From sequence record PQ765507: 64,000 nt of DNA, one strand, 5' to 3'. The notes beneath the pieces are model-generated. The model saw only the letters and a list, made by a program, of their open reading frames with translations. It searched no databases and was not told where the DNA came from. The stretch is from Escherichia phage 212. Both the position numbers and the translations under genes were made by a program. Position 1 is the first letter of the stretch, and each line of letters starts with the position of its first letter. This document shows positions 41,736 through 42,999 of the stretch, piece after piece.

Positions 41736-42068
41736 ATGAGCATCAAAACTTACAACGAGTTTTTAGCCGAATCCGCCATCAATGAGACCAAATCAATTGA
41801 TGATAGTGAAGGCTCTCTGAAATTTGGTTTAACCAAAAATGCAGATGGTGTTTTCTTTCAGATTGGTAATGAACGTTTTCAAACGTCCAAATATTCCAAA
41901 GCTGCAGTTGAAGCTGTCCTGAAATCTGGTGGCAAGTGGAAAGGCAAAGAAGGTACTAAAGAAATTGGTATCGCTGTTGACGGTGGTATGGCTTATTTTA
42001 AAATTGGCGATGAACAATTTATTATGTCTGCTCGCGGACGTAAAGAACTGGCAAAACTTTATAAATAA
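41736..42068 (+). CDS. internal-protein-like gene with capsid targeting sequence
   Basis: N-terminus MSIKTYNEFLAES resembles the T4 IP CTS; RBS AACGGAG; track start 41703 lies in the promoter. Confidence 0.7.
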   Translation: MSIKTYNEFLAESAINETKSIDDSEGSLKFGLTKNADGVFFQIGNERFQTSKYSKAAVEAVLKSGGKWKGKEGTKEIGIAVDGGMAYFKIGDEQFIMSARGRKELAKLYK

Positions 42069-42076
42069 GGTTTCTT

Positions 42077-42349
42077 ATGAAAACTTTCAATGAATTTTTC
42101 AACGAGTCCCAACTGAACGAAGAAGTAAAAATTAGTAAAGCAGTCAAAGCTATGATTGACAATATCAATCACTTGTATAGCATTGACTTGACTGACCATA
42201 TAACAATTGGTAACAAACGCAACTTTTTCGCGTTTGACATTTCAGAACTTGACCAGAACCAAATTAATAACATTGAGCGTTTTGCCAATGACAAGGGTCT
42301 CCGTCATGAGACAGCTGGTTATAAAAAATATGCAATTTATCTAAAATAG
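42077..42349 (+). CDS. internal-protein-like gene with capsid targeting sequence
   Basis: N-terminus MKTFNEFFNES. Confidence 0.65.
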   Translation: MKTFNEFFNESQLNEEVKISKAVKAMIDNINHLYSIDLTDHITIGNKRNFFAFDISELDQNQINNIERFANDKGLRHETAGYKKYAIYLK

Positions 42350-42357
42350 GATTTCAA

Positions 42358-42657
42358 ATGCAAACTTTTCATGAATTTTTGGTAGAAAACAATTACCTGG
42401 CGGAAGCAAAAACCTGGCCTCTGGGTCTTCAGAAGAAAAACACCTACAAATGGGTTGACTTCAAAGGTAAAGGCGACGCTGAAGACTTTGACCAGCTGCG
42501 CAAAAATGGTTATACCTTCCTTGACTCCAACTATAACAAAATTACCTCTTTTAGTCAGAAGTCAAGCATTGCCTTCATTGAAACTGGTAAGAACTCTCCT
42601 AAAGATATTTCTGACGACTTCGCCGCTTATGGTGTAATTCGTGGTTCAAAAATGTAA
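42358..42657 (+). CDS. internal-protein-like gene with capsid targeting sequence
   Basis: N-terminus MQTFHEFLVEN; payload homologous to the 55160..55423 product (GDAEDF..KNGYTF). Confidence 0.65.
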   Translation: MQTFHEFLVENNYLAEAKTWPLGLQKKNTYKWVDFKGKGDAEDFDQLRKNGYTFLDSNYNKITSFSQKSSIAFIETGKNSPKDISDDFAAYGVIRGSKM

Positions 42658-42664
42658 AAATGTA

Positions 42665-42703
42665 ATGTACGTGATGGGATAGTTGCAGTATAATTATCCC
42701 ATC
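42665..42703 (+). promoter_or_regulatory. early promoter cassette (-10 inside inverted repeat)
   Basis: ATGTAC - 18 bp - TATAAT; GATGGGATA ... TATCCCATC arms flank the -10; leader CAACTACTGGAG. Confidence 0.5.
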
Positions 42704-42720
42704 AACTACTGGAGCTACTA

Positions 42721-42999
42721 ATGAAAACTTATCAAGAATTTATTAACGAATCAATTAGTCACCCGGATATGCTGGAAGACCTGAAAGGACATCTGATGGT
42801 TAAGGCCCGACCGGTTGATGGTGGCGCATTTGAGTTGTTTCTTGTTAAAGGCGAAAACGGTCCTGATAACAAGAAAGTTTCAGCAATGATGTTGACTAAA
42901 GGTTACAAAGTCAGTTCTTCCTGGAATGCACCATTCACTTACGCGGTAAGCCCTCGTGAACTGAAAAAAGTTAAAGCTGGACAATATACAAAAATTTAG
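42721..42999 (+). CDS. internal-protein-like gene with capsid targeting sequence
   Basis: N-terminus MKTYQEFINES matches the T4 IP CTS (MKTYQEFIAE) apart from one residue. Confidence 0.75.
   Translation: MKTYQEFINESISHPDMLEDLKGHLMVKARPVDGGAFELFLVKGENGPDNKKVSAMMLTKGYKVSSSWNAPFTYAVSPRELKKVKAGQYTKI

Follow-up and report, generated by a model that had tools for sequence, protein, structure and literature searches.

Between gene 57B and trna.4 of Escherichia phage 212 lie four small tandem genes, and this locus raises the question of whether their products travel into the host with the phage DNA and, if so, what they do there. The DNA analysed, referred to here as the window, is a stretch of 64,000 nucleotides from this phage (sequence record PQ765507), and the four genes (ip genes 1 to 4) occupy positions 41736-42999 of it. 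The array is probably the polymorphic ipI locus of Gaprivervirus, consisting of four exchangeable cassettes that each encode an internal protein (Ip) of about 10 kDa and that would operate by a mechanism like that of T4. It is very likely, judging from the sequences, that the four proteins are packaged and processed Ips, and there is a reasonable case, by analogy with T4, that they serve as effectors against host defences.

Polymorphism at the ipI locus among T-even phages was reportedly described by Repoila and coworkers in 1994. The type of locus, the mechanism by which its products are targeted to the capsid, and the interpretation that an earlier, sequence-only reading gave to these genes are already published and correct in kind. 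What is new here is the unrelatedness of the payloads (the parts of the proteins behind the shared N-terminus), the predicted fold of the gene 1 product, the occurrence of the gene 2 payload without its targeting sequence, and the apparent ORFan status of gene 4 together with the repeats that flank it.

Capsid-targeting sequences and predicted processing

The sequence-only reading had placed four tandem genes carrying the T4 capsid-targeting sequence (CTS) next to 57B, and open reading frames (ORFs) were found exactly there with the N-termini that it gave. All four genes lie on the plus strand. Gene 1 (41736-42068) encodes 110 residues and begins with the CTS MSIKTYNEFLAE, gene 2, which is Ip9 (42077-42349), encodes 90 residues and has the CTS MKTFNEFFNE, gene 3 (42358-42657) encodes 99 residues and has the CTS MQTFHEFLVE, and gene 4 (42721-42999) encodes 92 residues and has the CTS MKTYQEFINE. 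A longer ORF that starts gene 1 at 41703 was rejected, since that start falls within an intergenic hairpin and the orthologues start MKTY, which makes 41736 the right one. When aligned, the N-termini proved identical or nearly identical to MKTYQEFIAE, with which both T4 IPII and T4 IPIII begin, and their assignment to the T4 CTS stands; the T4 IPI leader is longer (MKTFKEFTSTTTPVSTITE). Residues M1, T3, E6 and F7 are invariant in the ten aligned proteins from the window and T4. The N-terminal signature M-K-T-Y/F-x-E-F-[LIF]-x-E by which Ips are recognised was found in all four genes, with two extra residues in gene 1 (MSIKTY).

Translated in six frames, the window contains seven matches to the pattern T[YF]xEF[LIVFM]xE, compared with 0 in 200 shuffles, and every one of the seven lies 1-3 residues past an ATG with an upstream Shine-Dalgarno sequence. 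Beyond the four genes of the sequence-only reading, the window holds three more CTS genes, which start at 54379, 55160 and 55481.

An [L/I/F]-x-E site closes the CTS of each of the four genes. The sites predicted for the prohead protease gp21 in gene 1 (LAE/S) and gene 4 (INE/S) are canonical, and gene 3 has a second possible site, LAE/A, at residues 14-16. Cleavage would leave mature proteins of 98 residues for gene 1, 80 for Ip9 and 82 for gene 4, the range for the set being 80-98. Three of the four predicted mature proteins are basic, with isoelectric points (pIs) of 9.3 (gene 1), 8.8 and 9.6 (gene 4), where gene 3 was cut at residue 6 for the computation. When Ip9 is cut at residue 10, the positive and negative residues counted in the mature sequence balance out (K+R 11, D+E 11).

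The protease and the scaffold on which such processing would depend are both encoded within the window, gp21 at 11161-11799 (minus strand; Peptidase_S77 at 6.6e-102; 88% identity to T4 gp21) and the scaffolding core protein gp22 at 10310-11128 (minus strand; Pfam T4_CASP at 3.8e-91). The location of the genes is likewise that of a conserved ip locus (57B-trna.4 or e-denV). Among the aligned relatives of Ip9, the CTS persists even where overall identity is only about 30%, and every aligned orthologue of gene 1 has it too, which shows that the peptide is under selection. In T4, the 10 residues of the CTS suffice for packaging in experiments, going by the account of Mullaney & Black 1996 that is given in PMC3012670.

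Packaging, cleavage, injection and an anti-defence function are what we infer for the four Ips by analogy with T4. The CTS helix, comprising the N-terminal residues to about position 10, would direct each protein into the prohead during assembly, to the core formed by gp22. There gp21 would cut after the Glu of [L/I/F]-x-E, and the mature protein of 80-98 residues would stay in the head with the DNA. Ejected into the cell along with the DNA, an Ip could act ahead of all phage gene expression, and its likeliest task would be to neutralise a host system that attacks incoming DNA, with a separate target for each payload.

The expectation of anti-defence activity is in line with published work, in which Ips are described as diverse injected blockers of host defences that have only the CTS in common (Rao & Black 2010, PMC3012670) and in which T4 Ip1, Ip2 and Ip3 are shown to inhibit Type IV restriction enzymes of the GmrSD kind, a different one in each case (Silas et al. 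2025, PMC12373910). Silas and coworkers propose that whatever else the two Ip loci encode is directed against additional GmrSD variants (PMC12373910). T4 IPII and IPIII resemble the proteins described here in being small and mostly basic and in having a CTS that ends in L/I-x-E, and they come from the same subfamily with the same protease and scaffold. They differ in that their payloads are unrelated, their genes are at the ipII/ipIII position, and their targets are known (GmrSD of ECOR21 and ECOR17). With T4 IPI and the ipI locus of T-even phages, the array shares the 57B-trna.4 site and the same polymorphism of cassettes among close relatives.

Payloads of the four proteins

Seven Ips from the window were compared all against all by BLASTP together with T4 IPI*, IPII* and IPIII*, with the CTS removed from each. 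The sole significant pair was gene 3 with the gene at 55160 (E 5e-14); none was found among the mature parts of the four genes, which bears out the claim that their payloads differ from one another. Genes 1 to 4 fall into phrog_3966, phrog_7673, phrog_2667 and phrog_15565, respectively, and the T4 Ips fall into phrog_4363, phrog_7857 and phrog_5341. Searches of the four protein sequences against Pfam, NCBIfam and PDB returned nothing above noise. Payloads matching ordinary structural or metabolic proteins had been named as an outcome that would count against the sequence-only reading, and the remote-homology searches found no such family, and no relative of a solved structure, for any payload. 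In the annotations of VR7, VR20 and VR26, gene 2 is ip9, gene 3 is 'internal head protein', and genes 1 and 4 are 'hypothetical'; the latter two belong to the known Ip class without being labelled as such.

Homologues of gene 1 occur in 55 phage records from several Tevenvirinae genera, whose hosts include Edwardsiella, Klebsiella, Citrobacter, Salmonella, Pectobacterium, Serratia and Erwinia. In the AlphaFold model of the protein, the CTS helix is followed by two ββββα units. The two halves match each other (FFQIGNERFQTS versus YFKIGDEQFIMS; hhalign probability 95%, E 4e-8), and the model has a ββββα-linker-ββββα topology that arose through internal duplication. The payload is predicted to be a duplicated ββββα structure with a nucleic-acid-binding fold like that of Whirly, PUR and PC4 proteins. 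No match to Pfam or NCBIfam places gene 1 among Whirly or PurA sequences, and for this reason the protein can be said to resemble the Whirly/PUR fold and not to be a member of either family. Type I PC4-like domains, which include Whirly p24/Why2, MRP1/MRP2 and Pur-alpha (reviewed in PMC7549692), have about 150 residues compared with about 98 in the gene 1 payload, and the structural matches between them show 8-13% identity. A Foldseek search of the model against BFVD returned only the orthologue of gene 1 itself. The EAWsc9 orthologue (1147-1479 of the retrieved piece) is annotated 'profilin', a label that finds no support here.

Ip9 is found in 198 phage records. It is the direct orthologue (79% identity) of the RB15 protein 'Ip9' (UniProt Q38376), an entry whose name presumably goes back to the naming of the Repoila era (1994). 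The model of Ip9 (predicted local distance difference test score, pLDDT, 86.5) consists of the CTS helix and an α-β-β-α-β-β sandwich that has only generic structural neighbours. Homologues of about 50% identity that lack the CTS occur as stand-alone genes of 72-74 residues in a Kagunavirus and a Seuratvirus, both of them siphoviruses (2507-2725 and 2492-2716 of the respective retrieved pieces), and they start at the point that corresponds exactly to the end of the CTS and linker. The C-terminal part, about 80 residues long, of an 849-residue protein from Agtrevirus (Ackermannviridae; 191-2740 of the retrieved piece; phrog_3867) is another copy of the Ip9 payload, with 32% identity. A portable α/β module makes up the payload of Ip9, and in other phages this module is encoded with no CTS attached. 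The N-terminus of the Agtrevirus protein (MSKPNFLQFMQERDQLDEA) is vaguely CTS-like.

Gene 3 matches phrog_2667, labelled 'internal head protein', at 2e-21 and occurs in 193 phage records. Its full-length product is 33% identical to that of the gene at 55160 (E 2e-16), and, given the similarity of the payloads alone, the two are paralogues. The EAWsc9 orthologue of gene 3 (1769-2068 of the retrieved piece) is annotated 'homing endonuclease', which is likewise a label without support here. Gene 4 matches phrog_15565 at 4e-46 and was found in 17 phage records, each at least 97.6% identical. When 1.84 billion representatives were searched exhaustively with HMMER, nothing credible emerged for gene 4 beyond its own cluster, and two further matches, to highly repetitive proteins of 1216 and 1468 residues, were judged to be spurious artefacts of repetition. 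From these searches gene 4 appears to be an ORFan restricted to Gaprivervirus.

Repeats and the probable exchange of cassettes

The set of cassettes at the ipI locus varies among the relatives retrieved (P896, VR20, VR7, VR26 and EAWsc9), all of which are members of Gaprivervirus in the Tevenvirinae. The window and P896 have gene 1, Ip9, gene 3 and gene 4, to which VR7 and VR20 add Ip6. VR26 has gene 1, Ip9, Ip5 and Ip6, and EAWsc9 has gene 1, Ip9, gene 3 and two different small genes.

Gene 4 is flanked by a direct repeat of 63 nucleotides (D3), the two copies of which are 84% identical. In each copy, a -35-like hexamer precedes a stem of 9-10 bp, the loop of which contains TATAAT or TATGAT. 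Copy A, which is similar to the elements discussed below (42649-42711, plus strand; fold -19.5 kcal/mol, z-score -4.4), has the -35-like hexamer ATGTAC, the stem GATGGGATA/TATCCCATC and TATAAT in the loop, followed by a ribosome-binding site (RBS). Copy B is at 42983-43045 (plus strand; z-score -3.5). Upstream of gene 1, an intergenic stem-loop (GTGTAGG...CCTACAC) with the -10-like hexamer TAATAT in its loop (41684-41716, plus strand; fold -14.8 kcal/mol, z-score -3.1) is a degenerate copy that shares a repeat of 20 nucleotides (D4) with the element at 42680. A generic scan for sigma-70 promoters and terminators did no better on this DNA than on shuffles, and the analysis of repeats and hairpins was therefore relied on instead.

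Promoter-early/stem-loop (PeSL) elements were reportedly described by Arbiol in 2010. The elements described here share with them the early-promoter-like -35 and -10 hexamers, a conserved stem-loop (z-scores from -3.1 to -4.4) located at the borders of genes that are small and variable, and the position of a cassette junction inside the repeat. They differ from PeSL elements in that the -10 hexamer sits in the loop of the hairpin, and their role as promoters is putative. Shuffling at the IP locus has been linked to PeSL elements (Comeau, Arbiol & Krisch 2014, PMC4122927). The module of promoter, stem-loop and RBS (…TATCCCATCAACTACTGAGGAG…ATG) recurs before other small plus-strand genes, at 55427-55465 and 61690-61750, and the first of these copies, before the gene at 55481, has a clean GTTTAC-17-CATAAT. 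The sequence TATCCCATCAA has 8 occurrences in the window compared with 1.8 expected.

The repeat is present three times in VR20, and aligning these copies with those of the window revealed the hybrid nature of copy B, in which the 5' half corresponds to the VR20 copy between gene 4 and ip6 and the 3' half to the one that follows ip6. As read from these alignments, the hybrid is the signature of the gain or loss of a cassette, at the ip6 junction, by recombination between repeats. The 33-nucleotide 5' ends that encode the CTS are 64-76% identical in DNA among the cassettes of the window, and the first 30 nucleotides of two neighbouring VR20 cassettes are 97% identical; being alike in DNA, these ends offer a second substrate for recombination. 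Cassettes would thus be gained and lost by recombination between the PeSL-like repeats of about 60 nucleotides as well as between the CTS-coding 5' ends.

A match to the T4 late-promoter consensus, TATAAATA, is located at 42060-42067 (plus strand), 10 nucleotides before gene 2, where it may serve as a late promoter. The window contains 19 matches to this sequence compared with 4.5 expected. Of the five on the plus strand, one precedes 57A (40772) and another precedes Ip9 (42060). On the minus strand there are 15, of which 14 lie among structural genes (8322-37653).

Alternative explanations

Several observations weigh against reading the array as a T4-like ipI locus that encodes anti-defence Ips. 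Two of the predicted cleavage sites are slightly atypical: FNE/S in gene 2 has Phe rather than Leu or Ile at P3, and LVE/N in gene 3 has Asn at P1', with LAE/A at residue 16 as an alternative. Only one match to the late-promoter consensus falls inside the cluster, and it is very near the start of gene 2. The gene 1 model is of moderate confidence (pLDDT 76.6), and the other four models reach 53-65. None of the payloads of genes 1 to 4 is similar to T4 IPI*, IPII* or IPIII* (BLASTP E 0.3 or higher in every pairing; different PHROGs), and because of this the function of the four is extrapolated from their membership in the class alone.

It is possible, if rather doubtful, that all four proteins inhibit Type IV enzymes of the GmrSD family, as T4 Ip1-3 do, with each directed against one GmrSD variant. 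Their genomic loci are the same as those of T4, but their payloads are unlike IPI*, IPII* and IPIII* and belong to other PHROG families, and the gene 1 product, as modelled, looks more like a nucleic-acid binder than an inhibitor that binds an enzyme. The Ip9 payload also occurs in siphoviruses of Kagunavirus and Seuratvirus, which are not known to have hydroxymethylcytosine (hmC) in their DNA. Classical GmrSD requires glucosylated hmC. This premise may fail in Gaprivervirus, since the DNA of VR7 is reported to have modified, non-glycosylated cytosines and to be fully restricted by BREX (PMC6326788), and some members of the genus reportedly lack known enzymes for making non-canonical bases (PMC8056088). 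Inhibition of GmrSD is nevertheless what all three characterised Ips do, and the authors of that work extend it to other proteins of the Ip loci (PMC12373910). The analogy with IPI* and GmrSD is weaker here, because the payloads are unrelated to Ip1-3 and the DNA of the VR7 group is reported to be modified but non-glycosylated (PMC6326788).

A second alternative is that the four proteins are mainly structural or physical contents of the head, which neutralise DNA or fill the scaffold core and have no specific role inside the cell. The basic character of three of the mature proteins (pI 9.3, 8.8 and 9.6) and the predicted nucleic-acid-binding fold of gene 1 would suit such a role, as would the embedding of about 1000 Ip molecules in the packaged DNA of T4 (PMC3012670). 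A cassette content that varies between nearly identical phages is ill-suited to a structural requirement, however, while Ip9 has a mature form of nearly even charge and a payload that is a free gene in siphoviruses, and all three T4 Ips have proved to be anti-restriction proteins (PMC12373910). Taken with these points, a mainly structural role is improbable. Still less probable, to the point of being very hard to credit, is that the shared 5' ends are kept as DNA modules for recombination or translation initiation and that the proteins are early, cytoplasmic and unpackaged. Although the DNA identity of the 33-nucleotide 5' ends (64-76%, and 97% over the first 30 nucleotides in the VR20 neighbours) and the early-type promoter elements before genes 1 and 4 are consistent with such modules, the CTS peptide is kept through synonymous and conservative changes even at about 30% overall identity. 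The CTS is moreover precisely what the homologues lack in phages that have no head of the T4 type, and the same 10 residues suffice for packaging in T4, in the account cited above (Mullaney & Black 1996, via PMC3012670). A polymorphic ipI locus of packaged Ips remains the preferred reading of the array.

Genome setting and a second ip cluster

A megablast search of phage genomes with the window matched 765 records, with Escherichia phage P896 at the top (97.8% identity) and CJ20, VR20, VR7 and SP18 as the next relatives. By sequence similarity, the window belongs to Gaprivervirus and is a VR7/SP18-like relative of T4. The gene order around the array is gene 1 of T4 nomenclature (deoxynucleoside monophosphate kinase), 57A, 57B, the four ip genes, trna.4, trna.3 and tRNA genes. 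T4 has the same order but only a single ipI gene between 57B and trna.4.

The left border of the locus is 57B (41220-41675, plus strand), directly upstream of ip gene 1, which encodes the anti-CBASS nuclease Acb1 (Pfam PF23474 at 1.5e-59; 83% identity to T4 57B). The 'RNA ligase' label that RefSeq and PHROGs give to 57B is superseded by the match to Acb1. An established anti-defence gene thus directly adjoins the ip array. The right border, as in T4, is formed by trna.4-like and trna.3-like genes (43057-43624, plus strand; phrog_1692 and phrog_1411), named from the annotation of VR20, VR7 and T4. After trna.3 come tRNA genes for Met-CAT, Asn-GTT and Arg-TCT at 43718-43951. This tRNA block is variable in the genus, with one tRNA annotated in VR7, two in VR20 and three in the window.

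The three further CTS genes form a second ip cluster (54379-55780, plus strand) that flanks denV (54704-55111, plus strand) just past the lysozyme gene e, which is the position of ipII/ipIII in T4. These genes are located at 54379-54648 (89 residues; CTS MKTYQEFLAE), 55160-55423 (87 residues; CTS MKTYQEFITE) and 55481-55780 (99 residues; CTS MKTYQEFITE), all on the plus strand. PHROG matches in this cluster are to phrog_8765 and phrog_2667, and the VR7 annotation at the corresponding position is ip10/ORF127c/ip7. The protein encoded at 54379 matches the PHROG of ip gene 1 over residues 1-61, CTS included (1.5e-10).

Among the head genes, the major capsid protein gp23 is also encoded in the window (8729-10288). 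Two tandem genes of about 427 residues next to it (5731-7014 and 7015-8295, minus strand) both match the Gp23 capsid family, at 2.6e-97 and 1.1e-96, and they appear, from these matches, to be a duplicated gp24-like vertex protein.

Implications

In this T4 relative, with DNA that is modified but, going by VR7, non-glycosylated, the repertoire of Ips may extend beyond inhibitors of GmrSD. On this tentative proposal, which we regard as rather unlikely, the gene 1 product would coat or mask the entering DNA or sequester host nucleic acid, and Ip9 would be a module, shared with siphoviruses and fused to a larger protein in Agtrevirus, that T-even phages captured by the addition of the 10-residue CTS. 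If this is true, the gene 1 product would act in a way that has no precedent among the Ips described so far. The CTS would likewise be a general device for capturing cytoplasmic anti-defence genes, and homologues without a CTS would help to find such genes. The analysis yields two modest leads, namely an Ip predicted to bind nucleic acid and a payload that occurs without its delivery tag in unrelated phages. It also supplies four candidate effectors, or seven if the second cluster is included, from a genus whose DNA modification differs from that of T4. Since injected proteins do not have to await the expression of phage genes, Ips of this kind would provide first-line counter-defence and may help to set host range, which is relevant to the use of T4-like phages in therapy.

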